A stretch of DNA of 64,000 nt from Parcubacteria bacterium RAAC4_OD1_1 (GCA_000505065.1 AWSN01000001.1:559929-623928), one strand, 5' to 3'; positions 7,234-59,797 are shown, numbered from the stretch's first letter. Notes: generated from the letters alone by a model not told the origin. Numbers and translations are program-made.

Positions 7234-7244
7234 TAAAAATATTT

Positions 7245-7697: not shown

Positions 7698-7699
7698 TC

Positions 7700-7730
7700 A
7701 AAACTGTCCAGGCAAGGCCTGGACAGTTTT
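7700..7730 (+). terminator. Rho-independent terminator (aaaactgtccagg caa ggcctggacagtttt)
   Basis: Perfect 10-bp stem plus T tract. Confidence 0.7.
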
Positions 7731-7774
7731 GATTTGAAAGTATAAATAAACTTTTGTTGTGATATAATTATAGG

Positions 7775-10150: not shown

Positions 10151-10186
10151 TAGCATAAAATTATTGAGAGTGATAAAATTATAATT

Positions 10187-12583: not shown

Positions 12584-12656
12584 CCGCTCGTAGCTCAGTC
12601 GGTAGAGCAGCTCCCTTTTAAGGAGATGGTCGTAGGTTCGATTCCTACCGAGCGGA
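12584..12656 (+). tRNA. tRNA-Lys (anticodon TTT)
   Basis: 7-bp acceptor ccgctcg/cgagcgg, D-arm gctcagtcggtagagc, anticodon loop cTTTTaa, T-arm ggttcgattcc, discriminator A; no encoded CCA. Confidence 0.85.
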
Positions 12657-12733
12657 CAATGATTATATTTTAAGGCTTATTTTTAAAAAAGCTCTATTTT
12701 TGACGACCACTTCCCTTTAAAAACAGGTCGTCA

Positions 12734-13651: not shown

Positions 13652-13774
13652 AAGGCTTATTTATTAGAAATATAAATTCATAGCTGACATTTTATTGATT
13701 ATGTTTTATAAATATATATAGTGCTGTTTTTTAATATGGTACATGATATAATCAAGAGTATCAAAATAAAAATT

Positions 13775-14836: not shown

Positions 14837-14837
14837 T

Positions 14838-15878: not shown

Positions 15879-15884
15879 TAGTAC

Positions 15885-39204: not shown

Positions 39205-39208
39205 TTTT

Positions 39209-39850
39209 ATGATAAACCAAGTACACAACATAGATGCCTTGAAATTACTAAAAGCTATTAAAGATAAATCAATTGATCTTTTTTTAACAGATATCCCTTA
39301 TGAAAAAGTTAATAAAAAATCAAATGGCTTAAGAAAATTGGACAAAGAAAAAGCTAACACAAAAACATTTGAATTGAAAGATTTTCTTGTTCAGGTAGAT
39401 AGAGTAACAAAAGGAAGTGGATATATTTTTTGTGGAAAGGAACAAGTTTCTATAATTTTTGAATTCTTTGACCAAAAGAAATACACAACAAGATTAATGA
39501 TCTGGGAAAAAACAAATCCAAGTCCAATGAATTGTCAATACTCATGGATGAGCGGAATTGAAACTTTTATTTATTTTAAGAAACCGAACGCTACGTTTAA
39601 TGAACATTACAAAAATAGTGTTTTAAGATTCCCGAATGGTCAAAGCAAGAAACATCCAACAGAAAAACCATTAAAATTATTTAAATATTTAATAGAAGTT
39701 AGTTCTAATAAGGGTGATTTAGTTTGTGATCCATGTGTAGGTTCTGGTACTACAGCTGTAGCTTCTAAAATGCTAAGTAGAAATTTTTTGGTTGGTGATA
39801 TTGATGAAAATTATTGTAAGTTAACACAAAAGAGACTAATTATTAGTTAA
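39209..39850 (+). CDS. Beta-class N4-cytosine/N6-adenine DNA methyltransferase
   Basis: 213 aa; N-terminal LTDIPYE (motif IV variant of DPPY), C-terminal motif I VCDPCVGSGTTAVAS. Confidence 0.7.
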   Translation: MINQVHNIDALKLLKAIKDKSIDLFLTDIPYEKVNKKSNGLRKLDKEKANTKTFELKDFLVQVDRVTKGSGYIFCGKEQVSIIFEFFDQKKYTTRLMIWEKTNPSPMNCQYSWMSGIETFIYFKKPNATFNEHYKNSVLRFPNGQSKKHPTEKPLKLFKYLIEVSSNKGDLVCDPCVGSGTTAVASKMLSRNFLVGDIDENYCKLTQKRLIIS

Positions 39851-39861
39851 TTTTTTATTTT

Positions 39862-41028
39862 ATGATAAATATTAATCAATTATTAAATAAACCAATTGAA
39901 ACCTTATTAGCAGTTTTTTTTAATACCACTAAAAATAAAGAAAATAATTTTGAAGTATGTTCAAGATATCGTCAAACTAAATTTGCTAAATTACCTAAAA
40001 ATTCATATGAACAGACAGCTATTAGTTTATCAAATAAATATAAATTAAATTTCAATTCTAATGGAAAAGGGTTAATTATTTCAATTATTAATAATAATCA
40101 TAATTATGATCTTAATGATTTTTTAAATGTCGTTTATGATTCAATTGTTGTTAAGTTAAATAAATTACCTAGTAATTATTTACTTGATGTTGAAATAGCT
40201 TTAGCTCTATTTATGTTTCGTGGAAGTGTAGATTTTAATAGGAGTTTTTATTCTGTTGATTTAAAAAATCCCACAAAGGATTACATTGATAATTTTTTTA
40301 AGGTTCTTTTATCATCAGATGATTTATTATCTCGTCTAAATTTAAATTTCCGCGAATTACAACCCCAATATGTTGAAGGTAGAAATTTAAGAAACACACA
40401 AGTCAGAATAAACTTAAAGTGGTTTTATGATAATGTGATATTAAATTTTAGTAATATTAATAAATATAAAACAGATATTTTTTTTAAAAATATTGCGAAG
40501 TTAGGAGAAATAAGAAAATATAATATTTTTGAAGAAAGAATAATATTATATAAACAATCTATTTTTGGTAGAAAATTAAATAAAAATGAAATAAATAAAC
40601 TTAGAAATGAATTACAATTTAGTTTAAATGATGAACAAACTAAGGGTAATAAATTTTCTATTAGAAATCAAAAAATTGTTTCTTACGCAAGAGAAATATT
40701 TAATGATGTTTGTGTTGGTTGTAATTATACTTATAATATTAAAGATCGTTCTTTTAAAATGCCACGAAACGATAGATATTATTTTGAGATAAATCATGTT
40801 ATTGCTTATTCTAGTGATTCTGTTGTGGTAGATGTATTAGATAATTTAGTAAAACTTTGTCCTACTTGCCATAGAGCTTTAACACCTGGAAGAGCTTATG
40901 AGGAATTACAAAAAACAATTATAAAAAATATGTTAAATTCTAGAAAAGAAGTAAGTAGATTTGTTGATTTAATGAAACCAAAAGAATTTAAGTCGTCTAT
41001 TGATTATGTATATAAAATGTTGAAATAA
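39862..41028 (+). CDS. Putative HNH-family restriction endonuclease
   Basis: 388 aa after two methyltransferases; C-terminal CVGCNY...YFEINHVIAY...KLCPTCHRAL (C-x2-C / H-N-H / C-x2-C). Confidence 0.6.
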   Translation: MININQLLNKPIETLLAVFFNTTKNKENNFEVCSRYRQTKFAKLPKNSYEQTAISLSNKYKLNFNSNGKGLIISIINNNHNYDLNDFLNVVYDSIVVKLNKLPSNYLLDVEIALALFMFRGSVDFNRSFYSVDLKNPTKDYIDNFFKVLLSSDDLLSRLNLNFRELQPQYVEGRNLRNTQVRINLKWFYDNVILNFSNINKYKTDIFFKNIAKLGEIRKYNIFEERIILYKQSIFGRKLNKNEINKLRNELQFSLNDEQTKGNKFSIRNQKIVSYAREIFNDVCVGCNYTYNIKDRSFKMPRNDRYYFEINHVIAYSSDSVVVDVLDNLVKLCPTCHRALTPGRAYEELQKTIIKNMLNSRKEVSRFVDLMKPKEFKSSIDYVYKMLK

Positions 41029-45421: not shown

Positions 45422-45508
45422 GGAAGCGTGGCTGAGTGGTTTAAGGCACTTGTCTTGAAAACAAGGGACTATGAAAGTGGTCCGTGAGTTCGAATCTCAC
45501 CGCTTCCG
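45422..45508 (+). tRNA. tRNA-Ser (anticodon TGA), long variable arm
   Basis: Acceptor ggaagcg/cgcttcc, D-arm gctgagtggtttaaggc, anticodon loop cTTGAaa, variable arm ggactatgaaagtggtcc, T-arm gagttcgaatctcac. Confidence 0.8.
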
Positions 45509-45578
45509 CAGGAAAAATAAAGTATCGGAAGACTCATAGGCATATATTTTGATATGTCTATTTGTTTTTTCAACTATT

Positions 45579-45854
45579 CTAAAGATTAGCTCTTAACCAA
45601 TTAACAACTTCTGGTTTAAGATTTAAGCTACCCCAATCTTTACCTATTTCTATAACAAGTAATTTATCATTTGAATGCATTAATGGTTGTAGTCTTCTAG
45701 CTATATCTATCGCTGTTAAATCACTTTTTATTATAAAAACAGATTCAAGTGGTTTAGACCAATATGCAACTTTAGTTATTGCATTTCTTAGATTTTGATA
45801 AGAAGTTATAGGTTGTCCACCTATTAAATCATATGATATTAAATAATTTTTCAT
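45579..45854 (-). CDS. Cas2/VapD-like small protein (putative endoribonuclease fold)
   Basis: 91 aa; MKNYLISYDL...SVFIIKSDLTAIDIARRL...LLVIEI follows the Cas2 pattern (YDI...SVFEC...RRL...VRIY); no cas1 or array nearby. Confidence 0.35.
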   Translation of the reverse strand: MKNYLISYDLIGGQPITSYQNLRNAITKVAYWSKPLESVFIIKSDLTAIDIARRLQPLMHSNDKLLVIEIGKDWGSLNLKPEVVNWLRANL

Positions 45855-45855
45855 T

Positions 45856-46779
45856 TTAATTAGTTACTTGTTCATTATTTAATAAAGATGAGTCAACCCC
45901 GACCACAGAGGACCCCACAACAACTTCATTTTCTACAATCTCTTTTTCATTATCAAACAACGGAACATAATTCTTTTCTGTTATATATTTTATAAATTCT
46001 TCTAAATTTAGAATCGAAAACAATTTACCTGATTTATCATGAAACTCTTTTACTAAAGATCTTCTTGGAAAAATTTTATCATTTCTCTTTTTTTCTTCCC
46101 AAAAATCATCTTTAGTTTCCTCAGTAACAAGAATTATTGGTTTTGATAAATTTTCTGAATAATCAAGTATCTGAAACCATGCTATTGTATCACCATTACT
46201 TTTACCAATATCTGATACCCCAGGTTGTTTTTTAATTCTTGCTCTTTTATTTATCTCCGATTCTATTGCTGATTTTTTATCATCATCATAATCATTCCCA
46301 ATTTTATCTTTTAAGATTTTTTCTAATCTTTTTAAAATTATGTCATTTTCTGGTTCTCTCCAGTCAGGATTACATTTATTTTTATTAATTTTATTTTTTT
46401 GTCTAGTGATTGTATTTTGTAAATCTTTTACTATAGAGTCTATTTTAAGAGTAAAATGCTCTTGATCATTAAAATAACTTGAATATAAGTCTTTTTCTAA
46501 TGAATCTAATTTCCCAATAACTATTTCTTTTCTTTTAAATTCTTGGTCAATTCTATCTTTTCTATTCTTATAGAATTCACTACAGAATTGATAAGGTATC
46601 CAAACTCTATCTTTTTTCGATAAATCATCCATCATTTTTAAAATAGAATTTCTCTTTTTATTCTTATATCCATACAATCTCAAAAGAGCACACGCATCAA
46701 ATACAAAAATTGCATTTTTCTTCATTCGGATTAATTCTTTCTTTGTTGGGTGATAATATTCCCAAAAACTATCTTTCAT
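45856..46779 (-). CDS. PIN-like nuclease domain protein (split PIN with long insertion)
   Basis: 307 aa; N-terminal AIFVFDACALLRLY and C-terminal PIILVTEETKDDF. Confidence 0.5.
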   Translation of the reverse strand: MKDSFWEYYHPTKKELIRMKKNAIFVFDACALLRLYGYKNKKRNSILKMMDDLSKKDRVWIPYQFCSEFYKNRKDRIDQEFKRKEIVIGKLDSLEKDLYSSYFNDQEHFTLKIDSIVKDLQNTITRQKNKINKNKCNPDWREPENDIILKRLEKILKDKIGNDYDDDKKSAIESEINKRARIKKQPGVSDIGKSNGDTIAWFQILDYSENLSKPIILVTEETKDDFWEEKKRNDKIFPRRSLVKEFHDKSGKLFSILNLEEFIKYITEKNYVPLFDNEKEIVENEVVVGSSVVGVDSSLLNNEQVTN

Positions 46780-46996: not shown

Positions 46997-47548
46997 CTAA
47001 ATTATATTAATAATTCCATCCATCATCTTAATCTTTGATTTAAAGCATCCCATTAATTCTCTCTTCTCTTCATTTGAACCACTTCTGAGCACATACTTGG
47101 CGTAAGTTTTAAGATTAATTTCCTTATGCTTTTTATTTGAATTATTTATCTCAAGTACTCCTTTATTAAAATTATTTATCCTCTTCGATTCTTCTTCAAA
47201 CTTAATTTGCAATCCAACATCATTCACATCTATTTTATCTATCAACTTTATAAGTTGCTCTATTAACTCTTCTTCTCTTAAATATTCATTCTTACAGTGC
47301 CTATCTTTCGATCTTCCACATCCATAATAAATATATTTAGCTACCGTTCCATTCTTAAGTTTTTTGTATTTCTCTTCAGCTGATATTCCAGAACCACATA
47401 AACCACAGGTCATTAATTTAGTGAATGCAAACTCATGATTCTCTCTTAATTGCTCTTTTGCTTCCTTATTCCACCTTCTTGGATTATACTCACAAGGTTT
47501 TAGAGTATTAATGTCTGCATACTCTATTTTCAAGTTATCTTTCGACAT
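46997..47548 (-). pseudogene. Truncated large serine recombinase (only C-terminal zinc-ribbon/coiled-coil part; catalytic N-domain missing)
   Basis: LMTCGLCGSGISAEEKYKKLKNGTVAKYIYYGCGRSKDRHCKNEY = recombinase zinc-beta-ribbon motif; 183 aa is far too short for an intact enzyme. Confidence 0.55.
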
Positions 47549-48417: not shown

Positions 48418-49248
48418 ATGAAAGAGAATATGCCATATAGAAATGATCCACCATTAAACATTAATGTATTTAGACATGGTGAATCAGAATATAAACAAAA
48501 AGATGTATCGATAGAAAATGCAAATGATTTAACCGAGAAAGGAATAGAAGATGTTAAAGATAGCGCGGTAAAATTATCTGAATTAATTAAACCAGAAGAA
48601 GAGGTTGAAATTTGGTCTTCACCTACAAGTAGAACATTACAAACTTCAAAAATAATTAGTGAGACACTAAAAAATAAAGGAATCCACATTAGAGAAAAGG
48701 GGTGTGATAACAATTTTGGAGTCAAAGTTTTTGATCAGCTATCTGAGGTAAAAAATTTTTCATGGAAGCTTTTTTATCCACTTGTTAATGGTGGTGATGT
48801 TGAATTCGAAGGAGAAAAGTTTCTTGTTGATAAAAAATTTACCAATCCACTTGATATTCATCTTAATGAATATTTTTCTAAAAATGGGATAGCTACCATT
48901 GATATAGATTATAAGAAAACATTACCCAGTAATTACGTAAAAGAAATAGATGGATTTGAAAAGTTTACAGATGCAGTAAGAAGAATTATCATACCGCTAT
49001 CAAGATTAAAAAAAATTAAAGATAAACCCTACCGTATAATCATGGTTACACATGATGTTTTTTCTGGATTTATTGCTAATATATTTTCTGCAGGAGAAGA
49101 TAGTGAAAAACATACTATTAATCCGGGAGAATTTATAAACATTGAACGGGATAATGATAAGTTAGTTGCTACTAAAGTTGGAGACTTTAGTGATGGAAAT
49201 AAAGATACTGATATAATTGAAGAATTTAATAATAAGTATGGTTCTTAA
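48418..49248 (+). CDS. Histidine phosphatase superfamily (phosphoglycerate mutase-like) protein
   Basis: 276 aa; NVFRHGESEYK (RHG catalytic motif), later H in TLQTS region. Confidence 0.55.
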   Translation: MKENMPYRNDPPLNINVFRHGESEYKQKDVSIENANDLTEKGIEDVKDSAVKLSELIKPEEEVEIWSSPTSRTLQTSKIISETLKNKGIHIREKGCDNNFGVKVFDQLSEVKNFSWKLFYPLVNGGDVEFEGEKFLVDKKFTNPLDIHLNEYFSKNGIATIDIDYKKTLPSNYVKEIDGFEKFTDAVRRIIIPLSRLKKIKDKPYRIIMVTHDVFSGFIANIFSAGEDSEKHTINPGEFINIERDNDKLVATKVGDFSDGNKDTDIIEEFNNKYGS

Positions 49249-50502
49249 TTATTTAAAATAAACTTTCCTAATTTTTGAGCCCAATAAAGAAGTAAAATAA
49301 TTTAAAAATTTATTATTACTTTTAGATACTTGATTTAAAGAGATTTTTTTATCATTATTTTTTACCAAAAAAACTCTCGTCCCTAAATTGCATTTATTTA
49401 TATTTGTTATATTTATAGCAAAATTATTAGAACTAATTAGCCCAAGATTATGAGTATGTTTTTTATTTAAAAAGACTGTTGCTTTTTCTGATAAATATCC
49501 TGTATTACCCCATCCTACAGGGATAGTGGCAACCTTTAATTTTTGTTTTGCTACATATTTTTTAAAATATCCAATAGCATCACCCTTACTAACATAATTT
49601 ATATCTGTTATGTGTGTTATCACTGATGAAATAATAGGATTATTTAAAAATCTACCTTTCTTATCTTGAAGAGTCCCATAAATAAGACACCCTGGTCTTA
49701 CAAAAACCTTAACACCAGGTAGAATATCATTAAATATTTTTTTATTATAAGATTTTTTAAAATTAATAATAGCAGAACTATTGGCACAATGTATTGATGA
49801 AATTTTTATCTTACTATAAGATACTTCCTTTAAAATATGTAAAAATTTATCAAACTGAATAGCTGTAAATTTTTTATCTTCGGCATCAGTAAAATGAGTC
49901 CACAAACTTTCTATTTTTATAAAGCTTAATTTAGAAGTATTATGAATTAATTTAAATGCTTTATTTACATTAACACCATATCGATTTAATCCAGTATTAA
50001 TTTGGATATGAACTTTTGCTATTTTATTTTTATCTTTTGCTATTTTATTTAATAAAACCATTAATTCATAAGAGCTAACAGTAATTTCGACATCCAAATC
50101 TAAAAGTTTTGAAAAATGATCATAGAATGGTGGATAAAGCAAAATAATAGGTGTTTTTATTTTATTTTCTCTGAGAATTATGGCTTCATCTATAGAACCA
50201 ACAGCAATTTTATCTGTGCCTAACTTTTCTAATATTTTAGCTATTGGTACTAACCCATGTCCATAAGCATTGGCCTTCAGAACAGAAATTATTCCTATGT
50301 TTAAACCAACTTCACTTGATATTTTTTTATAGTTTTCTTCTAATTGATATAAGTTAATATTCATCCAAGTTAATGGTAAATTATTTTTTTCTATTATTTT
50401 GCTTTTAATATTTTTATTAAAATAATTGTTTATATCAGTATTCCCTCTGATACTGAATAGGCCCCCGTCTTCTTTCTCATAATAAATATTTTCTTTAATC
50501 AT
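49249..50502 (-). CDS. Alanine racemase-family PLP enzyme
   Basis: 417 aa; ISVLKANAYGHGLVPIAKIL (PLP-Lys in the KANAYGHG motif). Confidence 0.7.
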   Translation of the reverse strand: MIKENIYYEKEDGGLFSIRGNTDINNYFNKNIKSKIIEKNNLPLTWMNINLYQLEENYKKISSEVGLNIGIISVLKANAYGHGLVPIAKILEKLGTDKIAVGSIDEAIILRENKIKTPIILLYPPFYDHFSKLLDLDVEITVSSYELMVLLNKIAKDKNKIAKVHIQINTGLNRYGVNVNKAFKLIHNTSKLSFIKIESLWTHFTDAEDKKFTAIQFDKFLHILKEVSYSKIKISSIHCANSSAIINFKKSYNKKIFNDILPGVKVFVRPGCLIYGTLQDKKGRFLNNPIISSVITHITDINYVSKGDAIGYFKKYVAKQKLKVATIPVGWGNTGYLSEKATVFLNKKHTHNLGLISSNNFAINITNINKCNLGTRVFLVKNNDKKISLNQVSKSNNKFLNYFTSLLGSKIRKVYFK

Positions 50503-50514
50503 ATTAATAAAAAA

Positions 50515-51732
50515 TTAATCAAAACTATAATAAATATTCTTAAATCGTGAATTAAATTTAATTACGTTGTTTTTAATATTTTTCCCTTTTAGTGAATCAT
50601 CTATAAAAATAGCTATTTCTTCCATATCTTTTTCCCTCATACCTCTTCTTGTGATTTCTTGTGTGCCAAGCCTGATAAATAATCTATTCCCCAATCTGTC
50701 ATCAAAATTAGTTGATATATTATTCTTAACAAGGTTGTTGTATGTTTTCTTTCTATTACCAAAATTATCTATATACAAATGAACCTGATGATTTAATGAA
50801 TACAAACCGTCAGGCGTTCTCCTTACTTCATAACCAAGACTTTCTAAACTCGCCCCTAGCTGATTAGAATTTTTTATAATTTGTTTCGCATACTCTTTAC
50901 CATATTTTTTCATTTCAAGAATGGATATAGATAATGATATAAGATGATGTGTATGAGAAGAAGAAACCAGTCCTTTGCTAATAACATCATTTACTTTCTT
51001 GGCTAATTTTTTATTTTTAAAAGCAATTAATCCTTTTTGTGGCCCTGGAAGAGTTTTGTGTGTATTTGCACAAATAATATCAGCTCCTTCTTTGAGAGGT
51101 GATTGAAATTGCCCACCCATCATTAAACCTATTGTGTGGCTTGCATCATATATAATAATAGCCTTATTGCCTAATGATTTTCTTAGTACCTTAATATTTA
51201 TTGGATTAATACAATATGAGATATCTAAATATAATAGTTTACACTTTTTTTCTTTAAAAATATCCTTAATTTTTTTACTATCAAAATCTAAAGATTCTAA
51301 ATTAAATGGGGCATAGACATATTTTCTGCCAGTTCTTTTTAAAATGTGACTTGTTGCAAAATGCCCTCCATCTTTATGTGCTACAATCATTACAGTATCA
51401 CCTGGATTAGATAAAGAAAGTATAGCGCACATCATTGCATGCACACCAGAAAGACAAAGTGGTGTAAAACTCTCACAGTTTATCATTTTTTTCATTGATG
51501 AATTTGCTTCATCTATTAAATCCTGAATATCTTTAAGTCCAAGACATGTGAAAGGATTCCAATCTATAATTCCTTTTACACCTGAACCAAAGAAATATCT
51601 CTCAGATAATTTACTGAATAAAAAGCCATTGGCTGTCTCAGAAAGCTGATTTTCATATGCAGTTAAATGCAAGAAATTACTATTCCTTTTTTCTAACTTT
51701 TTTATATTACTAATTAATTTATTTATTTTCAT
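50515..51732 (-). CDS. Serine hydroxymethyltransferase-like (SHMT/threonine-transaldolase fold) PLP enzyme
   Basis: 405 aa; ANTHKTLPGPQKGLI matches SHMT TTHKTLRGPRGG PLP-lysine motif; otherwise diverged. Confidence 0.55.
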   Translation of the reverse strand: MKINKLISNIKKLEKRNSNFLHLTAYENQLSETANGFLFSKLSERYFFGSGVKGIIDWNPFTCLGLKDIQDLIDEANSSMKKMINCESFTPLCLSGVHAMMCAILSLSNPGDTVMIVAHKDGGHFATSHILKRTGRKYVYAPFNLESLDFDSKKIKDIFKEKKCKLLYLDISYCINPINIKVLRKSLGNKAIIIYDASHTIGLMMGGQFQSPLKEGADIICANTHKTLPGPQKGLIAFKNKKLAKKVNDVISKGLVSSSHTHHLISLSISILEMKKYGKEYAKQIIKNSNQLGASLESLGYEVRRTPDGLYSLNHQVHLYIDNFGNRKKTYNNLVKNNISTNFDDRLGNRLFIRLGTQEITRRGMREKDMEEIAIFIDDSLKGKNIKNNVIKFNSRFKNIYYSFD

Positions 51733-51735
51733 AAC

Positions 51736-53112
51736 TTATATTTTTACGTATAAAATCATTAACTTATTGCTATTTCGCATTTTTATAAGTACATTTTTAA
51801 TCTCTTGTAAGCTAATCTTATTATAATCAATTTCAATCTTATCTATTTTTTTATCAATATTATAAATACTGGAAATTAATTTTTGCCCACCAGTGGAAAC
51901 AGAACCATTATTATCTATAACAATAATCCCCATTGAAATCTTTCTAGAAACAGCTTCAGATAGTGCTTGAATTCCGCTATGTAAAAAAGAAGCATCCCCA
52001 GTAATACAAAATGGATATTGAACTCCCCCTAAAACAAGACCAATGCCATTCCCGACAGAAGATCCTAAACATAGGCAAGAATCAATCACATGTGTCGATT
52101 CAACTGTGAATTGTCCTACGTCACCAACTACAAAACTTGGTTTTATAGATTTAATTGCTTTAAATAATTTAGATAAATTATCCCAAACAATCCAATTCTT
52201 AGATTCATCAGAAATAATTTTAATCTTTGATTTTAGGACCAGATTCTTATTTTTGTTTTGAATTAAATTCTCAATTTTTTTGAAGACTAAATCATCTCCT
52301 TGTTCAAGAACAACAACTTCATTTTTTTTATTAATAAATTTTTGAATTGTTTTTTTGGGGATGGGATATGTTTCAATAAATAATTTATCCCAGTATTTAT
52401 ACTTTTTTAAATATGACTCCTCTAATGAAGCCCCAACAGCTATAACACCTAATTTACTTTTTTTATATGGTATATACTTTATAAATTTATCAACAAAATT
52501 ATCGATCTCAATATTTTTTTGGTCTAATCTTTTTTTCTGTTCTAACCAATAATTTGGGTAAATTATATATTTATTACTATTTTTGGATATCTTTATTTTA
52601 TCTAATTTTATTTTGTCTAATTTTTTATAATCATCAATTAAATTAAAAAAATTATTTGTAAGACGTATAACAACAGGAGTATCATATTTTTCTGATAAAT
52701 AAAAAGACTGTCGTGCAATATTATATGCAGAATTTAATGAATTAGGCTCAAACCACATCCCACCAAAGAAATCATGGTAATGCCTTGAATCTTGTCTTTC
52801 TTGTGATGCAACAACATCAACATCTTCTGTAATAACAATAACCATCCCCCCATTAACTCCAGATAATAATGAATGTAAAAATGGGTCAGATGCAACATTT
52901 AGCCCAATATTTTTTATTGTTAAAAGACTTCTTTTTCCTGACAAACTAATCCCATAAGATATATCAAAAGCTACTCTTTCATTCAATGATATTCTATCCC
53001 CGTTAAGATTATCAAAAATTTCATGACTATAAAAACCTGGGAAATTTATAACATTATCAACTCCGCCATCAATAAAACCGTCACACAATGTTTTTATAGA
53101 TTTTTTAATCAT
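51736..53112 (-). CDS. Thiamine-pyrophosphate-dependent enzyme (2-keto-acid decarboxylase/sulfo- or phosphonopyruvate decarboxylase-like)
   Basis: 458 aa; C-terminal TPP-binding fold GDVGQFT...ITGDASFLHSG...IDNNGSVSTGGQ. Confidence 0.55.
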   Translation of the reverse strand: MIKKSIKTLCDGFIDGGVDNVINFPGFYSHEIFDNLNGDRISLNERVAFDISYGISLSGKRSLLTIKNIGLNVASDPFLHSLLSGVNGGMVIVITEDVDVVASQERQDSRHYHDFFGGMWFEPNSLNSAYNIARQSFYLSEKYDTPVVIRLTNNFFNLIDDYKKLDKIKLDKIKISKNSNKYIIYPNYWLEQKKRLDQKNIEIDNFVDKFIKYIPYKKSKLGVIAVGASLEESYLKKYKYWDKLFIETYPIPKKTIQKFINKKNEVVVLEQGDDLVFKKIENLIQNKNKNLVLKSKIKIISDESKNWIVWDNLSKLFKAIKSIKPSFVVGDVGQFTVESTHVIDSCLCLGSSVGNGIGLVLGGVQYPFCITGDASFLHSGIQALSEAVSRKISMGIIVIDNNGSVSTGGQKLISSIYNIDKKIDKIEIDYNKISLQEIKNVLIKMRNSNKLMILYVKI

Positions 53113-54584
53113 ATTTCAATTTTAGATTTTATTAATGGGCTATCATTATTTTCAAAATTAATATTTGATTTATAAATTAAACTCATTATTTTTGCGGGAA
53201 TATCATGTGATGTTATATTAGACAACATAGAATTTATATCAATAAAACCTCCTAAATAATTTAAAAATTCTAATATCACCAATTCTTTTGCGGTTTCATG
53301 AAATAATTTATTATCCTGAAAGTCATTTTCCTTATCTAAATCTTTGAGATTATAAACTTTTAATGGTAATTCATCTTTGCTAAACATTTTTGCATTTCTA
53401 AAAACATAAATATCAAAATGATTATTCCCCCCTAAATTATAATCGTGAACAGTATTTTTATCTTGCATATCATTAGATTGATAATTATGTATTTGTATAC
53501 ACTGAAATGGACCTTGTTGTATATAATAATATTGATGCTTTACTCTTCCGTTTCCTTTATATAAATCATCATTGGGCTTAATCCATGCTCTTCTTGAAAA
53601 ACTGTTGTGAAGTAAATTTACTGATATATTACAAATATTTATATTATTTTTTGTTAATTTTATATTAGAAAAAATATCTATTTCCCCATAGTTTTTATAT
53701 AGTTCTTTAAGCTCTATTTCATCTCTTCTTTTACATTTATTATAAACTTCTTTACCAAAATAATTCTCATAATCTTTTTGCCCAAATTGAACCAATAAAC
53801 CTTCTGGATTAAGAAAAGATGAATATACCTCTATTCCATCTGGTTCTTTATCTTTTACTAAACCATTTTTATAGAGTTGCCAAATTATATCAAAAATATG
53901 ATAACTACTATGTGACCCCTTACCATAACCCAAATTATATGGATGATATGTTTGTTCAACTATTTCATCTGGAAATATCCATACCCCATCTGAGTGCATT
54001 GCCTGTATTGATGTTACTGGTGCATTAAATTTTTCTGAAACTTCTTTAATTAAATCAAATACTTTTAAATATCCTTTTTCATATCTTCGCTGTACATTTA
54101 TAGAAAAAACTGTTTCTTTTTCTTTTTGTAATTTTAAATAAGCTTTCAGTATTTCCTCATAGTCATCATAAATACCATCAGCCTGTTTTATATTATGACT
54201 AACATTTTTTCTTGTTGAAATTGGTTTATCCATTAAAATATTTAAACCTTGACTAATTGCCCATAATGCATAACTTTTATGAGCTAATGGTTCCGTAGAA
54301 ATAACAACACCTGTTATATTATTTTCTTTAACAGCAATAGAAAGTAAATCTCTGTTTTCTTCTGATAATTCTTGAGTATTATCATAATCCTCAATGTAAA
54401 ACATTTTTAGGTTAAAATTATTAGAATCAAGATAGTCTTCTATATTATTTTTTTTACTTTTAAAATCTACTCCTAATTTTAAACAAAAAGGCATATTATC
54501 CATATGTTTAAACAATGTTGGAATATAAATTCTCTTTGCATGCAATCCAACCCCTATTATCATTATGTTATTACATATGGGCAT
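53109..54584 (-). CDS. Gfo/Idh/MocA-like NAD(P)-dependent oxidoreductase
   Basis: 491 aa; N-terminal Rossmann IMIIGVGLHAKRIYIP. Confidence 0.45.
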   Translation of the reverse strand: MPICNNIMIIGVGLHAKRIYIPTLFKHMDNMPFCLKLGVDFKSKKNNIEDYLDSNNFNLKMFYIEDYDNTQELSEENRDLLSIAVKENNITGVVISTEPLAHKSYALWAISQGLNILMDKPISTRKNVSHNIKQADGIYDDYEEILKAYLKLQKEKETVFSINVQRRYEKGYLKVFDLIKEVSEKFNAPVTSIQAMHSDGVWIFPDEIVEQTYHPYNLGYGKGSHSSYHIFDIIWQLYKNGLVKDKEPDGIEVYSSFLNPEGLLVQFGQKDYENYFGKEVYNKCKRRDEIELKELYKNYGEIDIFSNIKLTKNNINICNISVNLLHNSFSRRAWIKPNDDLYKGNGRVKHQYYYIQQGPFQCIQIHNYQSNDMQDKNTVHDYNLGGNNHFDIYVFRNAKMFSKDELPLKVYNLKDLDKENDFQDNKLFHETAKELVILEFLNYLGGFIDINSMLSNITSHDIPAKIMSLIYKSNINFENNDSPLIKSKIEI

Positions 54585-54670
54585 ATAATATATAGTAACT
54601 ATATCATTATCTGTTAAAAATTAAAATGTATACCTTATGTTGTTGATTGGCCATATGATATAATTACTAA

Positions 54671-55660
54671 ATGAGTAAACATGATATTTATATTAAAAAA
54701 ATTATAAAATTTAAAGTTGGTGGTAATCTATTGAAATCTAAAAGAATATTGGGTGGACATAGTGGTTATGTATATGCAGTTAGCGTAAAATTAAATTCTA
54801 ATATAAATGAATACATCATAAAATTATCAAATATAATAGGTTCAAAATCATTGAGGGATGAAAAAAATGAGCAACGAGTATATGGAGGTCATTCAAAAAG
54901 TCTAGCTAAGGTTCATAATCTTCTTAAAAAGAAAAATTTAAAAACATTTACTTTAATATCACACTCGTTACCAAACAAAGAAATACCATATTTCTACCAA
55001 TTAATTTCTAAATTAAATGGATTTTCTGTGAGAGAACATTTAGTGATTAATAATATTAATAAAAAAGAATTATTTGAATTAGCTGGTGTTGAATTTGCTA
55101 AATTACATTTAATAACAAGAAATTATGACGGTTGGGTGGAACAAGATACTCCATATAATATAAGCTGGGAGGAATCTTTTTTTTCAGCATTAGATTTTAG
55201 ATTAAAATATTTAATAGAAAATAAATATTTTAATGACAAAGATTCAAAAAAATTAATTCATTTTATTAAAAATAAAAAAATAAAATGGACGTCACCCAAA
55301 GAATATGTTTTTTCTCATGTGGATGGGTTACAAGGGATGGTTGAGTATAAAAAAAATAATTGGATATTTAATGGACATATTGATTTAGAAGATTATAGAT
55401 TTACTGATCAAAGATTTGTTTTAGCTGGATTTGAAATTGGAGCAAATTATTCAACAAAAGAAGCTCCTATTAATTTTTGGGACGGTTATTTAAAATTTAA
55501 AAAGATAGATAAGAGTTACCATGAATTAAAAGATTTATTTAAAGTATTTTACTTTATGTCTTGGATACATATGACTGCTCTTAGTTTAAAAAATGATAAA
55601 TTGTCTCGAAAAATAAGTAAAATTTATATTAAAAAAATAAAGATATTAATGATTAAATAA
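54671..55660 (+). CDS. APH/choline-kinase-like phosphotransferase
   Basis: 329 aa; catalytic loop FSHVDGLQGMV (HxD..) and NGHIDLEDY (metal-binding D). Confidence 0.5.
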   Translation: MSKHDIYIKKIIKFKVGGNLLKSKRILGGHSGYVYAVSVKLNSNINEYIIKLSNIIGSKSLRDEKNEQRVYGGHSKSLAKVHNLLKKKNLKTFTLISHSLPNKEIPYFYQLISKLNGFSVREHLVINNINKKELFELAGVEFAKLHLITRNYDGWVEQDTPYNISWEESFFSALDFRLKYLIENKYFNDKDSKKLIHFIKNKKIKWTSPKEYVFSHVDGLQGMVEYKKNNWIFNGHIDLEDYRFTDQRFVLAGFEIGANYSTKEAPINFWDGYLKFKKIDKSYHELKDLFKVFYFMSWIHMTALSLKNDKLSRKISKIYIKKIKILMIK

Positions 55661-55757
55661 ATGATATGTCTTTATCCTTAGAATCAGCTCAAAATTATTT
55701 AGAAAAAAGAAGTAAAAGTTGTCATAGATAGACAACTTGGTTCTCCTCATCCAAAAT

Positions 55758-56171
55758 ATGAATATAATAAAGAAAATAAAAGAATTAAATTTACCCAAAG
55801 ACCAATATATAGTTGTTGGTAGTGGTATTTTAGACATGTTAGGAATTAGAAAATCTAATGATATAGATATTGCAGTTACAAAAGATTTATTCGATAAAAT
55901 GAGAAAAACTGATGAATGGGAAGAAGTAGAAAAATACAATAAAATTTTTCTCAAAAAAGAAGGTTTTGATATTATCCCTCAGTTAGATTGGGAAAATTAT
56001 ACCACCACCACAGAAGAAGCAATATCTAGTGCTTTAATAATAGAGGGTATTCCATTTATGAATTTAAATGAACTTATTAAATTCAAAACTGCATTAGGAA
56101 GAGAAAAAGATTTTAAGGACATAGAACTTATTAAAGAGTATTCAACTAAGAAACTAGAAAAAAGGCCTTAG
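55758..56171 (+). CDS. Pol-beta-superfamily nucleotidyltransferase (ANT/Lnu-like)
   Basis: GSGILDMLGIRKSNDIDIAV = GS...DxD nucleotidyltransferase motif; likely start MNIIKK. Confidence 0.5.
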   Translation: MNIIKKIKELNLPKDQYIVVGSGILDMLGIRKSNDIDIAVTKDLFDKMRKTDEWEEVEKYNKIFLKKEGFDIIPQLDWENYTTTTEEAISSALIIEGIPFMNLNELIKFKTALGREKDFKDIELIKEYSTKKLEKRP

Positions 56172-56488
56172 CGTGTCGCATTTGTCGCATTTTTGGTAAA
56201 AGAGCTATAGATAGCAATAAACGAAGAGTGACTCACAGGGCTAATTTAGAGTCCTTTAAATGTGTTAAAATACCTTTACAAGGGTTGAACTCGTGGGTAC
56301 TGAACTCACATGGCCCGCAATAAAATAACGAACCCAATGTGAAAACATTGGGTGATTTATTTTATAGGAGAATGGTGGATTCGAACCGAGGGCTTGCGAA
56401 GCCTGCGGTAGCGGAAAGCCCGAGTGGGGGTCGAACGAGTGAGATATTTTATGAATGAGAATAAAATAAAATATCCACGAGAGTGACC

Positions 56489-56521
56489 GAATCTCACCGC
56501 TTTCACAGAAAAATAAAGTAT
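56489..56521 (+). repeat. Decayed attR-like repeat of the tRNA-Ser 3' end plus 17 nt of downstream flank
   Basis: 30 of 34 positions identical to 45492-45525. Confidence 0.6.
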
Positions 56522-56567: not shown

Positions 56568-57551
56568 ATGAAAGAATTATTAAAAATAAACAAGGTAGAA
56601 AATATTGATAATGAGGAAAAAAATACCCCAGAGTTAGAACAGAACCCTGATTTAGCTAATGCTGCATATGAAACTTTAGGTTTTAAAGGAAAAGATTTTG
56701 TTTATACTTCTGAATTAATAGATGAGGTTATCGAAAAACCTGATTTTGAAGAATTATTACCGGTTGCTCAAATTTTTAAACATAAAGATAGAATAAATCA
56801 TACCAAAGTTTTTTTGGGTAAAAATGTTCGATCGGTAAATTTTTTAAATCAAAACACAATAGCTCTTGGTCAAACAACAAATTTTATAGAGAATAATAAA
56901 ATAGCCAATAATATTTTTGTTTTTGATAAAAAATATTACGAAGCACTAGGTAAACCTGAAAGAGAAAGTCAGCAGTCCACTTTATTACACGAAGAGATAC
57001 ACAGATATACTTCATTTATAATTGGAGAATATAAAAAAATAGCCAAATTCCCTGGTATTGAATATTGTGAAAAATTTAAGGAACATTTTAATTCCCTTGG
57101 TATTCATGATGTGTCTTTAGAAATTGAATTCTTAAAAGAATATTTTAACTTATTTGAAATATATAAAAATCAAGGAGGATGGCTTAATTCAATTGAGTTT
57201 ATTACATATGGGTTAACAAATAAAGGAGGGGTTGATTTTCTAAAAAATATTAGATTGCATGGCAGAGAACTTTCTAAAAGGAGTCAAGATTCACTTAATA
57301 ATCTCACACTATATGATGCTCTATTAGATTTATTTAAATATTACTATACAAACTTATCTGATGATGTTTATGCTTCTTCTACAGATACAGTTAAGTTAAA
57401 ATTTGACAGCGTTTTAGTATCTACAGAACAAAAAAATAAAGCTGAGCAAATATATTTAGAATATATAAAAACTTTAGCAAGTAAAAACGATATAACAAAA
57501 GAAGGATTTATCGATTTTATAAAAACAAAAGAATTAGGTTCACATATTTAG
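56568..57551 (+). CDS. Hypothetical protein with HExxH (putative zinc metallopeptidase) motif
   Basis: 327 aa; STLLHEEIHRYTSF. Confidence 0.35.
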   Translation: MKELLKINKVENIDNEEKNTPELEQNPDLANAAYETLGFKGKDFVYTSELIDEVIEKPDFEELLPVAQIFKHKDRINHTKVFLGKNVRSVNFLNQNTIALGQTTNFIENNKIANNIFVFDKKYYEALGKPERESQQSTLLHEEIHRYTSFIIGEYKKIAKFPGIEYCEKFKEHFNSLGIHDVSLEIEFLKEYFNLFEIYKNQGGWLNSIEFITYGLTNKGGVDFLKNIRLHGRELSKRSQDSLNNLTLYDALLDLFKYYYTNLSDDVYASSTDTVKLKFDSVLVSTEQKNKAEQIYLEYIKTLASKNDITKEGFIDFIKTKELGSHI

Positions 57552-57655: not shown

Positions 57656-58453
57656 ATGGAAATATTTCCAAAAAATCGCAATGAAACAAAAGATCAAAAT
57701 CAAATTGAATCTTTAAATCCAATTATTTCTAAACAGTCTGAAGTTATTAATAGGCAAACTGAAACAGAAAACTCTCAAGAAAGAGATAATCTTATTAATT
57801 CAAAAAGGGATGAGATTCTAGATATGCTTGATGATAGAAAAAATAATATTGAGAATGAAGAAGAAATAAAAGAAGGTATTGATTTTGTGTTTGAACAAAA
57901 TTCAGAATTAGAAAAAATCGGAACGAAAGAACAGTATTCTAAATATTTAGATACTATATTTCCTGACAGTAAAGTAACAGATATTGTTTATCATGGAACT
58001 GTTAATAATTTTGATGAATTTAATCTTAATTATTTTAATTCAAATTCTGGATCTAGAGACAGAAAAGATCCTGCTTTTTATTTTACTAGTAAAAGTATAG
58101 TTGCTAAAGATTTTTTATTTAAAAAAAATGGGAAAATACTATCTTCTTTACTTAATATAAAAAATCCAGAAATAATAGATGGTAAACATAAAAACCTTAT
58201 AGGCAAAAGAGGAGTAACCACATTCGTTGATATTCCAGGTTTTATAAAAAATGGTAAAGATGGAATGGTTATTAATGATGTTTTGGATATAGATCCAAAA
58301 GCTGGGTTAAAGAGAGTAATTGATGGTATTGGAAATGAAGAATATTATTCTAATATTTATGCAACTTTTGGAAATAATCAGTCTTTTATTCTAGGATCTA
58401 AACAAGATTTAGAAAATTTCAAAAAATTTCTTGAAAATAATAAAGACTCATAG
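57656..58453 (+). CDS. Hypothetical protein; weak H-G-T / Y / E pattern reminiscent of H-Y-E class ADP-ribosyltransferases
   Basis: 265 aa; IVYHGTVNNFDEF ... AFYFTS. Confidence 0.25.
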   Translation: MEIFPKNRNETKDQNQIESLNPIISKQSEVINRQTETENSQERDNLINSKRDEILDMLDDRKNNIENEEEIKEGIDFVFEQNSELEKIGTKEQYSKYLDTIFPDSKVTDIVYHGTVNNFDEFNLNYFNSNSGSRDRKDPAFYFTSKSIVAKDFLFKKNGKILSSLLNIKNPEIIDGKHKNLIGKRGVTTFVDIPGFIKNGKDGMVINDVLDIDPKAGLKRVIDGIGNEEYYSNIYATFGNNQSFILGSKQDLENFKKFLENNKDS

Positions 58454-58588: not shown

Positions 58589-59797
58589 CTAGATTTCATC
58601 TAATGCTTCATCTACTAGATCCAAAGATTCTTCAGCTAGATCTTTCGCTTCTTCATAATCTTCTTCATCAAAAGCTTCTTCAGCATCATCTAGTAAATCT
58701 TTCGCTTCATCAAGTAAGTCTTCAGCATCATCAACGTCTTCTCCATCTTCATCAGCCTCATTTATTTCATCATCCGCATCATTTATTGCATCTTTTGCGT
58801 CATCTATTGTTTCTTCTGCATCATCTTTGTCACTATTTTTACCTATTGCATCAATGGCATCATTTGCTAAATCTTTTGCTTCGTCGGCTAAATCTTCTGC
58901 TTCTTCATAATCTTCTTCATCAAAAGCTTCTTTTGATTTTTCTAGTGTGTCATTGGCATCATCTAATATTTCTTCTGCTTCATCTATATCTTTATCATTA
59001 TCTTCAGCCTCGTCAATCTTGTCTTTAGCCTCATCGATTTTATCTTCTGCTTTATCTATAATATTTTCTACTTCATCTTTTAAAGATTCTCCACCTGCAT
59101 CTTCAAAAGCATCTTCTGCATTCTTGTATGCATCATCAGCGTAATCATAAGCATCACTATAATCTTTATCTATAAGAGCAATAATTGCGTCAAATAAATC
59201 TTCTTTAGCATCCTCTAGGTTACCTTCAGATGAAGAAGTATTTTCATCACTATCCTCAATCTGATCTTCTGCGTCGTTAATCATCACTATTGCTTCCTTT
59301 ATTCTTTTCATAGCTTTTCCTTGCTCTCCTGTATTGGGGATAGTTGTAGATGGGGTATTTGTAGTTTCGTCTGGCTTACATTTTTTACCAGTTGTAATAT
59401 CATATATAGCAGATGAAGAACAATCAGTTGAAACAGTATTTGTATTTGTCGTATTAGAAGTATTACTATTAGTAGTTTTGATTAATGAATTATATTTCAT
59501 TCTAGATTTCATCCCAAAATATCCTTTGGATGGAGTTATGTTGTTTGCTATTTGCCAGCGGATAAGAGCTTTTTGTGTTAACTCTCCAAAATTTTCAGTT
59601 TCATTCCCCAAAGAGCCCACCCCAGAAGAAGATATTGTATATCCAGAATTATTTAGATATTCTTGTAAGCAACGAACATCTTCACCTTTAGAATCAATTT
59701 CTAAATCTCTAGTAAATTCACAACTAGATGCACTTACATTTAAAGCTAAAAACCCAACGATAAAAATAAATAATGTTTTAAAAATTTTTGTATACAT
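58589..59797 (-). CDS. Secreted protein with N-terminal peptidoglycan-binding-like domain and long acidic (D/E/A) repeat region
   Basis: 402 aa; signal peptide; CLQEYLNNSGY...ALIRWQIANNI (PG_binding_1-like); C-terminal (DEAEDxxDxAKD)n. Confidence 0.6.
   Translation of the reverse strand: MYTKIFKTLFIFIVGFLALNVSASSCEFTRDLEIDSKGEDVRCLQEYLNNSGYTISSSGVGSLGNETENFGELTQKALIRWQIANNITPSKGYFGMKSRMKYNSLIKTTNSNTSNTTNTNTVSTDCSSSAIYDITTGKKCKPDETTNTPSTTIPNTGEQGKAMKRIKEAIVMINDAEDQIEDSDENTSSSEGNLEDAKEDLFDAIIALIDKDYSDAYDYADDAYKNAEDAFEDAGGESLKDEVENIIDKAEDKIDEAKDKIDEAEDNDKDIDEAEEILDDANDTLEKSKEAFDEEDYEEAEDLADEAKDLANDAIDAIGKNSDKDDAEETIDDAKDAINDADDEINEADEDGEDVDDAEDLLDEAKDLLDDAEEAFDEEDYEEAKDLAEESLDLVDEALDEI

Follow-up and report, generated by a model that had tools for sequence, protein, structure and literature searches.

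Genes at the Locus

We analysed a window of 64,000 nucleotides from Parcubacteria bacterium RAAC4_OD1_1, in which six enzyme genes lie next to each other. Four of them are tightly packed on the minus strand. The first encodes a Gfo/Idh/MocA-like dehydrogenase of 491 aa (53109–54584) and overlaps by 4 bp with the gene for an IorA-derived ThDP enzyme of 458 aa (51736–53112). After gaps of 3 bp and 12 bp, respectively, there follow genes for an SHMT-like protein of 405 aa (50515–51732), which contains CANTHKTLPGPQKG, and for an Alr-like protein of 417 aa (49249–50502), recognized by TIGR00492 and carrying VLKANAYGHG. These four genes form one operon, of which the Alr-like gene is the last. Divergent from them, at a distance of 86 bp, the plus strand carries genes for a small-molecule kinase of 329 aa (54671–55660), APH/fructosamine-kinase-like at the family level, and for a small Pol-beta-type nucleotidyltransferase (NTase) of 144 aa with a GSG...DIDI motif (55737–56171). 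Since the ORFs reach 400–490 aa in DNA of 26% GC and each has many homologues at 40–90% identity, we regard them as real genes rather than chance reading frames. All six had been called, with the same coordinates, in an earlier note on this DNA. Its family assignments were right in outline, except that the ThDP enzyme is not of the PDC/IlvB type and that the kinase can be placed only at the level of a family.

An Integrative Island at tRNA-Ser

The six genes had previously been suggested to sit on an island at a tRNA-Ser gene, and the boundaries of this island can be recognized. The integration target is tRNA-Ser(tga), found with ARAGORN at 45422–45509 on the plus strand. Its last 19 nt, together with the following 16 nt, make up a 35-nt direct repeat, with an attL-like copy at 45491–45525 and an attR-like copy at 56488–56521 (both plus strand; 31/35 identical). 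A 15-mer from this repeat, CGAATCTCACCGCTT, has no second occurrence in the window, nor any in the other 108 loci. Such repeat copies bracket about 11 kb, enclosing all six enzyme genes and an integrase remnant, and the island claim therefore holds. The remnant is a decayed serine recombinase/integrase fragment of 183 aa (46997–47548, minus strand; PF13408, E = 2e-9), which corresponds to profile positions 364–472 of 651 in the phrog_95 integrase. Only its Zn-ribbon domain is left, and no functional integrase for the island was found with Pfam and PHROGs. The compositional contrast is weak (GC 0.26 for the island vs. 0.293 for the window). Overall, the operon of this genome is located on a decayed integrative island of about 11 kb at tRNA-Ser.

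Two accessory genes of the island lie on the minus strand close to the tRNA gene, coding for a phrog_1090 protein of 91 aa (45579–45854; PHROGs) and for a PIN_8 protein (45856–46779; PF18476, E = 8e-38). A gene for a histidine-phosphatase-superfamily protein (48418–49248, plus strand; PF00300, E = 2e-9) converges on the Alr-like gene with zero gap; of the relatives, L027 alone, which is the closest, keeps it beside the operon. Past the NTase gene, alignment and blastn revealed an older, diverged remnant resembling a tRNA 3' end (56286–56325, plus strand), which L027 also has. It is followed by an unstranded hairpin (56332–56353) resembling a bidirectional terminator, 3' of the NTase gene.

The Kinase and the Nucleotidyltransferase

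The kinase and NTase genes accompany the operon in L027 only, and for this reason we consider them co-cargo and not part of a conserved pathway. Together with the phosphatase, they represent lineage-specific co-cargo of the island. The window kinase gave no direct Pfam or PDB match. At the family level, 21/37 members match PF01636 (APH) and 23/37 match PF03881, while the family profile matches hygromycin-B 7''-O-kinase, APH(7''), with E = 4e-7. Read from the sequence, the window protein keeps the DFG-like motif (IDLED), and the Asn of its HxDxxxxN loop is replaced (HVDGLQGM). The NTase scores 18.3 bits against DUF6036, under the cutoff of 23.6, and matches phrog_12854 with E = 1e-11; its counterpart in L027 is fused to NUDIX.

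The earlier note had considered that these two proteins might form a resistance cassette. They would then inactivate an aminoglycoside, lincosamide or nucleoside antibiotic and have nothing to do with the operon. The APH matches described above and the adjacency of the two genes on a mobile island speak for such a cassette. However, the kinase family matches fructosamine kinase as often as APH, the window kinase lacks the loop Asn, and the family is rare and unannotated (77 representative clusters among 1.84 billion proteins). The NTase, in turn, matches only families of unknown function, and its fusion to NUDIX in L027 also counts against resistance. NCBIfam holds NCBI's curated resistance-enzyme models, and none of its models matched either protein at E ≤ 0.01; PADLOC returned nothing as well. 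Thus, resistance did not find confirmation, and we deem it very improbable.

Conservation of the Module across Patescibacteria

Genes for the Gfo-like and ThDP proteins, in this order, are adjacent and co-directional in 26 loci, and in 13 of these they overlap by exactly 4 bp. The pair is kept across relatives in which ThDP protein identity falls to about 30%. The invariant core of the module is thus an NAD-type Gfo/Idh/MocA dehydrogenase of about 490 aa, whose gene usually overlaps the start of the IorA-derived ThDP gene. SHMT-like and Alr genes join this core in only some one in three loci, the other partners being P-loop kinases, SDR, glycosyltransferases and NUDIX.

The order Gfo, ThDP, SHMT-like, Alr, which we call Type A, is also found in L027, L012/L014, L107 and L033, and in a rearranged form in L010. 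The SHMT-like gene is linked in other arrangements too: L013, L109 and L011 have it upstream, and in L021 it is placed downstream of kinases and GT2. In Type B loci, SDR, dNK-like and TMPK-like kinases, GT1 or GT2, and NUDIX compose one co-directional run; dNK-like kinases and a NifS-like sulfur-mobilising enzyme are included in these loci. The operon studied here is the Type A version of a pathway module that is conserved across Patescibacteria. The four genes had been described as an unusual metabolic cargo, a view we cannot share: the module is conserved and stands outside islands in L107 and L012, where ribosomal, translation and aminoacyl-tRNA synthetase genes surround the same four genes.

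The Dehydrogenase and the ThDP Enzyme

The dehydrogenase is a long (491 aa) NAD-type member of its family, with an N-terminal Rossmann domain followed by a C-terminal alpha/beta domain. It scores 23.0 bits against PF01408 (gathering cutoff, 24), a match that is precomputed for most of its homologues, and the GxGxxA motif, the Asp closing beta-2 and DKP can be read from its sequence. The nearest folds are those of the UDP-GlcNAcA 3-dehydrogenase WlbA, GenD2 and GnnA. Nevertheless, compared with sugar 3-dehydrogenases of the Gfo/Idh/MocA family (WlbA/WbpB, GenD2, GnnA, IolG, DgpA), the window protein is only 10–15% identical, is about 150 residues longer, and, as read from its sequence, carries His at the position of the D-x3-H region that is normally Asp (H225...H229). 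R166, R167, R332, R347, R396, K246 and K343 are invariant in the family; such a set of basic residues suggests that the substrate is anionic.

For the ThDP protein, the best sequence model was IorA (TIGR03336), although its 205 bits fall far short of the cutoff (651), and the fold corresponds to OFOR domains I, II and VI. As in IorA, the PYR domain, domain II and the PP domain follow each other, and the ThDP motifs are kept: G372-D373...D400-N401 of the ThDP-binding GDx(25-30)N motif and the cofactor-activating Glu, E45, are invariant. Unlike IorA, the protein has no Fe-S cysteines, and about 45 residues before the PP domain are deleted. Where canonical IorA has CxGCPH, GDIGCYT, a C-terminal Cys and two CxxCxxCxxxCP motifs, the window protein reads IVWDNL and GDVGQFT and ends early. 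The window protein and the short family lack the Cys ligands for a proximal [4Fe-4S] cluster as well as the 2x[4Fe-4S] ferredoxin domain, and neither the window nor any of eight annotated loci showed an IorB (PF01558) neighbour. With ligands, ferredoxin domain and IorB partner all lost, the protein cannot be a ferredoxin oxidoreductase. Its fold is that of IorA/OFOR, and Fe-S clusters are lacking. The earlier note had seen a TPP-dependent 2-keto-acid decarboxylase here; the IorA model and the OFOR domains rule out one of the PDC/IlvB type.

These two enzymes invite the idea that the module tailors a keto-sugar or nucleotide sugar for a surface glycan. An NDP-3- or 4-keto-sugar would come from the dehydrogenase, a two-carbon unit would be added or removed by the ThDP enzyme, and the accessory enzymes would decorate, activate and transfer the product. 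Branched-sugar chemistry of the YerE/AviB type is a model for such a two-carbon step. The WlbA, GenD2 and GnnA folds agree with this idea, the many invariant basic residues would suit a nucleotide-linked substrate, and the Type B runs bring kinases, SDR, glycosyltransferases and NUDIX. Furthermore, genes for a kinase, an NTase and a phosphatase, along with a pyrophosphatase-like ORF, are present both in the window and in L027. However, the clusters contain neither an RmlA-type sugar nucleotidyltransferase nor a 4,6-dehydratase, Type A has no glycosyltransferase, and the transaldolase-like enzyme and the racemase would be left without a role. To our knowledge, all characterised OFOR-superfamily enzymes use 2-oxoacids and none acts on keto-sugars. 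We therefore find sugar tailoring decidedly unlikely.

The SHMT-Fold Enzyme and the Racemase

The SHMT-like protein scored higher with the fluorothreonine transaldolase model TIGR04506 (273 bits) than with the SHMT model (200 bits). Both values are below the curated thresholds, 650 bits for TIGR04506 (matched at model positions 3–407 of 609; the window protein lacks the C-terminal domain that fluorothreonine transaldolase has) and 335 bits for GlyA (NF000586), while the broad PF00464 was matched with 92 bits against a cutoff of 27. ObiH is its joint best PDB match. The catalytic and PLP residues of ObiH—Y55, H131, D204, K234 and R366 (PMC10495429)—align to Y46, H124, D196, K226 and R354, invariant in 32 family members (numbering of the 7K34 chain is offset by +12 relative to the ObiH numbers used). 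Loop 1 contains Trp and is within two residues of the length of that in ObiH, and the two proteins have 'STN' in common where SHMTs carry 'NKN'; folate-binding loops 1 and 2 diverge from those of SHMT.

Folate-dependent chemistry in SHMT requires the Glu of the Y-A-E-G-Y-P motif (E57 in E. coli). At the site of this residue ('YAEGYPGKR'), the window protein has RYFFGSG, and 0/120 homologues are acidic there. Comparison with the PDB SHMTs 4J5U and 4BHD gives the same result as that with the E. coli enzyme. A GlyA identity is thus ruled out by the NF000586 score and the missing Glu, and the protein resembles threonine transaldolases, as had been supposed in the earlier note. Still, Glu is missing throughout the Patescibacteria family, including singletons in housekeeping contexts, and its loss alone is consequently no mark of a dedicated secondary-metabolite enzyme. 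The family profile also scores slightly higher with archaeal SHMT (238 bits) than with ObiH (214 bits), and the C-terminal ...YSFD ending resembles that of the M. jannaschii enzyme (4BHD). Yet the latter has retained the catalytic Glu, in RYAEGLPGKR, and has no 7-residue insertion in loop 1, while the Patescibacteria family has both RY[YF]xGxG and the insertion.

The Alr-like protein belongs to the alanine racemase family of PLP enzymes. It exceeds the TIGR00492 equivalog cutoff (227 vs. 168 bits), and models of VanT-type serine racemases give 190 bits. The best PDB match is the alanine racemase 4y2w, with the PLP-Lys (KANAYGHG) and the catalytic Tyr (IGY) aligned. This may be the sole alanine racemase of the genome.

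Such a racemase raises the question of mere co-location, in which Alr would provide D-alanine for peptidoglycan, the SHMT-like protein would be the general glycine/serine/threonine aldolase of the lineage, and both would happen to lie beside an unrelated Gfo-ThDP sugar module. The equivalog match of Alr with its Lys and Tyr is in line with this, as are the size of the SHMT-like family (986 matches, many of them single genes amid housekeeping genes), the absence of both genes next to most core pairs, and the ribosomal, translation-factor and ProRS genes flanking the Type A operons of L107, L012 and L010. On the other hand, the gene order and the 3-bp and 12-bp gaps persist across lineages that share only 43–53% identity in their ThDP proteins, the SHMT-like gene is linked to the core in other layouts as well, and all four genes moved jointly on the island here. 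Linked SHMT-like copies, moreover, form separate clades (3 state changes; with shuffled labels, 13.4 on average and never fewer than 8) and bear their own loop-1 signature; these clades could reflect taxonomy and not paralogy. On balance, co-location seems to us unlikely, if worth keeping in mind. The earlier note had itself named housekeeping orthologues (Alr, GlyA, IlvB) in syntenic non-island contexts as what would speak against its reading. This is the case for the racemase and for the setting of the operon, but not for the SHMT-like protein, which is no GlyA, or for the ThDP enzyme, which is no IlvB.

Proposed Pathway and Precedents

The combination of a ThDP enzyme, an SHMT-fold transaldolase and a racemase, put forward in the earlier note, stays the best reading of the operon. 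We tentatively suppose that dehydrogenase, ThDP enzyme, transaldolase-like enzyme and racemase act in this order and make a beta-hydroxy-alpha-amino acid, which we hold to be possible rather than probable. The dehydrogenase would oxidise a hydroxyl of an anionic substrate (a sugar acid, a 2-hydroxy acid or a phosphorylated or nucleotide-linked polyol) to a 2-oxo compound, which the ThDP enzyme would decarboxylate or cleave non-oxidatively to an aldehyde. With L-threonine or glycine as donor, the PLP enzyme might then transfer a glycyl unit to this aldehyde, and the racemase would invert C-alpha of the product or else supply D-alanine. What counts against this scheme is that ring secondary alcohols, and not 2-hydroxy acids, are the usual substrates of the Gfo family, and that P-loop kinase, SDR, glycosyltransferase and NUDIX partners would better fit a nucleotide or sugar pathway. 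Even so, an unusual hydroxy-amino acid is the most likely output of the Type A operon, rather than a housekeeping function or antibiotic resistance.

A precedent is the acceptor-aldehyde logic of ObiH (PMC10495429). Early obafluorin steps involve a ThDP-dependent arylpyruvate decarboxylase and then ObiH, and likewise, the ThDP gene here adjoins the gene of an SHMT-fold PLP enzyme with the catalytic residues of ObiH, a similar loop 1, 'STN' and no SHMT Glu. The differences are that the ThDP enzyme has the OFOR/IorA and not the PDC fold, that a Gfo-type dehydrogenase is its obligate partner, and that no NRPS or other obafluorin gene is present; the host is a Patescibacteria member with a reduced genome. 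In albomycin biosynthesis, the transaldolase AbmH is followed by the PLP epimerase AbmD, which inverts the amino-acid centre (PMC9032320). The operon similarly has a transaldolase-like gene and then one for a PLP enzyme. Unlike the albomycin system, it has no radical-SAM or siderophore genes and nothing pointing to a nucleoside substrate. In Type B loci, the dNK-like kinases and the NifS-like enzyme recall albomycin with its dCK-like AbmG.

Operon layout and the island at tRNA-Ser

All six genes described in the earlier note were recovered by the ORF listing. On the minus strand lie an alanine racemase (Alr)-like gene (49249-50502), an SHMT-like gene (50515-51732), the gene of a ThDP enzyme (51736-53112) and a Gfo/Idh/MocA-like gene (53109-54584), packed with one 4-bp overlap and gaps of 3 and 12 bp. 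Divergent from this operon, on the plus strand, are a kinase-like gene (54671-55660) and a small nucleotidyltransferase (NTase) gene (55737-56171). Homologues of the window are overwhelmingly Patescibacteria by label. Promoter-like sites in this AT-rich DNA (GC about 29%) numbered 55 against 62 expected from shuffles, showing no enrichment, and therefore we make no claims about promoters.

The tRNA-Ser island proposed from the sequence alone also holds. The last 19 nt of tRNA-Ser and the 16 nt downstream (45491-45525) are repeated at 56488-56521 with 31/35 identity, and these repeats bound about 11 kb containing a phrog_1090 gene, a PIN_8 gene, a recombinase fragment, an unknown gene, a histidine phosphatase gene and all six genes under study. 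The difference in GC content is small (0.26 for the island vs. 0.293). With its integrase decayed, the island is by now probably fixed in place. Its right boundary is composite, including an older, diverged tRNA-end-like remnant (56286-56325) common to L027, the locus of the closest relative (84% nucleotide identity to the window over 7.4 kb); in L027, what comes after this remnant is homologous to the window stretch directly after tRNA-Ser. Between the two tRNA-end remnants (56286-56450 region) there is a GC-rich patch with minus-strand tRNA-like fragments (TGGTGGATTCGAACC...), where ARAGORN found no tRNA and Rfam gave no significant match. The remnant and the patch suggest repeated integration at tRNA-Ser.

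A defence-island reading was discarded, PADLOC having returned no defence-system match for ten proteins in or beside the island. Just outside the attR-like repeat, a 327-aa unannotated ORF (56568-57551) precedes a protein with a 'polyvalent protein'-type ADP-ribosyltransferase domain (57656-58453; PF18760, E=6e-9).

The ThDP enzyme and its dehydrogenase partner

The best model for the 458-aa ThDP enzyme was IorA, the alpha subunit of indolepyruvate:ferredoxin oxidoreductase (OFOR superfamily), at 205 bits, far under the cutoff of 651. Aligned with canonical IorA, the protein lacks the CxGCPH pair, the GDIGCYT Cys, the C-terminal Cys and the entire 2x[4Fe-4S] domain; its GD...DN motif and activating Glu are invariant in the family, and no IorB gene lies nearby in any annotated locus. 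Judged from the residues lost, the enzyme no longer has redox capacity, and ferredoxin chemistry is not possible for it. All members of the OFOR superfamily characterised so far use, to our knowledge, 2-oxoacids as substrates. The family comprises about 100 members among the matches listed; a single-sequence scan of genome contigs returned zero relatives, and an alignment-based scan was needed to find them. A PDB sequence search gave nothing useful, and our literature searches found no description of an Fe-S-free IorA-like family.

The 491-aa Gfo-like protein had no PDB sequence match either. It belongs to a family of more than 1000 homologues without a name, at 50-60% identity, in which many Arg, Lys and His positions are invariant. 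Three known schemes for a Gfo-like and ThDP pair were considered, namely IolG/IolD-type inositol catabolism, phosphonate biosynthesis and a coenzyme-M-like logic; each was rejected since its defining partner genes are missing and its ThDP enzyme is of another superfamily.

The SHMT-like and Alr-like enzymes

The SHMT-like protein matches Pfam SHMT; however, it scores 273 bits with the fluorothreonine-transaldolase model vs. 200 bits with the SHMT model, whose cutoff is 335. In the PDB search, ObiH, the L-threonine transaldolase (TTA) of obafluorin, shared the top position with an archaeal SHMT, both at 162 bits; the bacterial GlyA structures reached at most 102 bits. Where SHMTs have Y-A-E-G-Y-P-G-K-R, the window protein has RYFFGSG, and the catalytic Glu of SHMTs is absent from all 120 closest homologues. 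When the family profile was aligned with ObiH, this Glu was lost in both, the extended loop 1 with its Trp was nearly alike, and an STN motif was common to both in place of the NKN of SHMTs. Moreover, the ObiH residues classed as catalytic or PLP-stabilising (PMC10495429) align to invariant residues of the family. By these sequence criteria, the active site is transaldolase-like.

The Alr-like protein passed the alanine racemase equivalog model (227 bits vs. a cutoff of 168), and its PLP-Lys and second-base Tyr align with those of a solved Alr structure. More distant members of the SHMT-like family (55-59% identity) stand alone, in surroundings of unrelated housekeeping genes. A housekeeping Alr and a general aldolase merely co-located with an unrelated module would be one explanation of the operon, which we find doubtful.

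A neighbour-joining tree was built from 56 SHMT-like members on contigs of at least 10 kb, with linkage represented by a proxy, that is, contigs matched by their length against the Gfo or ThDP hit lists. Linked copies required 3 state changes on this tree; when the labels were shuffled 500 times, the mean was 13.4 and the lowest value 8. Screened strictly for positions fixed to different residues, linked and singleton copies differed at just two, both conservative (M/I 204 and I/V 219). The contrast sits in loop 1, which reads DWNPFTCLG in linked copies of operon Type A, DFxxFTFVG in those of Type B (both types are described below) and mostly D[FML]GHFTALG in singletons, among which the loop is variable. 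Loop 1 is regarded in the TTA literature as the hallmark of each subfamily (PMC10495429), and the pattern fits a specialised subfamily of linked copies. The clade structure may instead be a purely taxonomic effect.

A conserved core with alternative partners

Among the 109 loci gathered for comparison, the Gfo-like gene is followed by an adjacent, co-directional ThDP gene in 26, half of which (13) show an overlap of exactly 4 bp; L010 and L018 are rearranged exceptions with the Gfo-like gene on the opposite strand. The two genes form a conserved core that is combined with alternative partner sets. In Type A (the window, L027, L012/L014, L107 and L033, with a rearranged version in L010), the core is joined by the SHMT-like and then the Alr gene. 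Type B (L109, L011, L013 and L016) is a co-directional series of SHMT-like, an unknown protein of about 240 aa, NifS-like, Gfo-like, ThDP, SDR, dNK-like and TMPK-like P-loop proteins, GT1 and NUDIX. Type C (L019, L020, L026, L034-L037 and others) combines the core with a TMPK-like protein and often an alpha/beta hydrolase. The Type B and C partners suggest a keto-sugar or nucleotide-sugar tailoring pathway, a reading that we regard as unlikely for the operon.

The NifS/IscS-type cysteine desulfurase of Type B (L011 6630-8523, L109 7109-8995) carries the motifs SGHK...GTEN...GSACSS, and the conserved protein of about 240 aa ahead of it matched nothing in Pfam; their presence is a hint that sulfur is incorporated in the Type B variant. 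L108 is the sole locus with a Gfo-like gene and no ThDP gene, its neighbours (7229-11099) being genes for a Peptidase_S51, a WelO5-like 2OG-Fe(II) oxygenase and a class IV aminotransferase.

The Type A operon of L107 has housekeeping neighbours, namely S2, EF-Ts, RRF, UppS and RseP at one end and ProRS, GreA and AspRS at the other. Type A is thus not island-borne in general, and the description of these genes as an unusual cargo has to be abandoned. In L010, L012 and L107, all of them annotated, ProRS is a flanking gene of the Type A cluster; in L033, its position is occupied by a 475-aa ORF, and tRNA-Pro(tgg) lies directly upstream of the cluster in L010 (4770-4843) and L012 (8391-8467). Contigs with Gfo and ThDP genes in L014, L017-L019 and L022-L024 come from MAGs labelled Nitrospirota, Gammaproteobacteria, Legionella, Pirellula and Planctomycetota. 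The high-identity contigs with non-Patescibacteria labels look like mis-binned Patescibacteria; the Planctomycetota contigs, at 29-33% identity, may represent real spread past the phylum.

The kinase-like and NTase proteins

The window set of kinase, NTase and phosphatase was found again only in L027. The kinase-like protein had no direct match in Pfam (even at E<=5) or PDB and its family is rare, with 77 representative clusters; in this family, 21 of 37 members matched Pfam APH and 23 of 37 fructosamine kinase; the family profile matched hygromycin-B 7''-O-kinase with E=4e-7. For the NTase, only DUF6036, below threshold, and a PHROG of unknown function were matched, and a PDB sequence search gave nothing useful. 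A resistance cassette, the other interpretation offered in the earlier note, has this kinase-family resemblance to consider; however, no curated model supports it, and we judge it very improbable.

In L027 (1093-2259), the NTase has a NUDIX domain fused at its C-terminal end (269 aa), and a 116-aa inorganic-pyrophosphatase-like ORF lies between this gene and the kinase; the window has neither. The fusion and the additional ORF point to nucleotide handling as a putative role of the pair.

A candidate pathway

From the earlier interpretation, the pathway logic can be retained along with the island. The dehydrogenase would turn an anionic hydroxy substrate into a 2-oxo compound, from which the ThDP enzyme would produce an aldehyde by non-oxidative decarboxylation; the PLP enzyme would then build a beta-hydroxy-alpha-amino acid, and the racemase would invert C-alpha or supply D-Ala. 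We put this four-step route forward tentatively, as a possible function that may well prove wrong. Its precedents are obafluorin, with the transaldolase ObiH (PMC10495429), and albomycin, with AbmH and AbmD (PMC9032320). Its enzymes are members of known superfamilies, and the logic put forward here is similar to that of known transaldolase pathways; our literature searches found no description of the Gfo/ThDP/SHMT-like/Alr combination in CPR.

It is also conceivable, if improbable as a whole, that we are dealing with a widespread Patescibacteria pathway based on a new enzyme type, an Fe-S-free OFOR/IorA-derived ThDP lyase/decarboxylase with a long Gfo-family dehydrogenase as its obligate partner. 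Type A would then lead to a beta-hydroxy-D-amino acid or a high-carbon amino sugar acid and would be mobile between lineages on tRNA-targeting islands; its product might serve as a building block of the cell wall or act as an antimetabolite against the host or competitors.

The metabolism of Patescibacteria is thought to be minimal and largely salvage-based, with few conserved gene clusters having an assigned role. For a phylum that is poorly understood, the operon is a concrete candidate pathway open to testing, and it offers three testable objects: the Fe-S-free IorA-derived ThDP family, the nameless dehydrogenase family that is its fixed partner, and a transaldolase-like PLP clade with its own substrate-loop signature. 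Should the chemistry be true, it would mean a new route to beta-hydroxy amino acids, of biocatalytic interest, and a specialised metabolite that reduced episymbionts produce and exchange horizontally. If the operon serves peptidoglycan-precursor housekeeping instead, it would show how glycine and D-amino acids are supplied without a canonical GlyA.

Other features of the window

The C5-cytosine methyltransferase motif DLFSGxGGLS starts three ORFs (13721-14836, 14838-15878 and 38143-39204) within the stretches 12584-17015 and 38143-41028, the first two being preceded by tRNA-Lys (12584-12657) and an unannotated 305-aa ORF (12734-13651). Going by this motif, they probably represent cargo for restriction-modification and may mark another island. 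Finally, the protein encoded at 58589-59797 looks secreted; it carries a peptidoglycan-binding domain (PF01471) at the N-terminus and a long region of highly acidic repeats rich in Asp and Glu, with four DUF4398 stretches.
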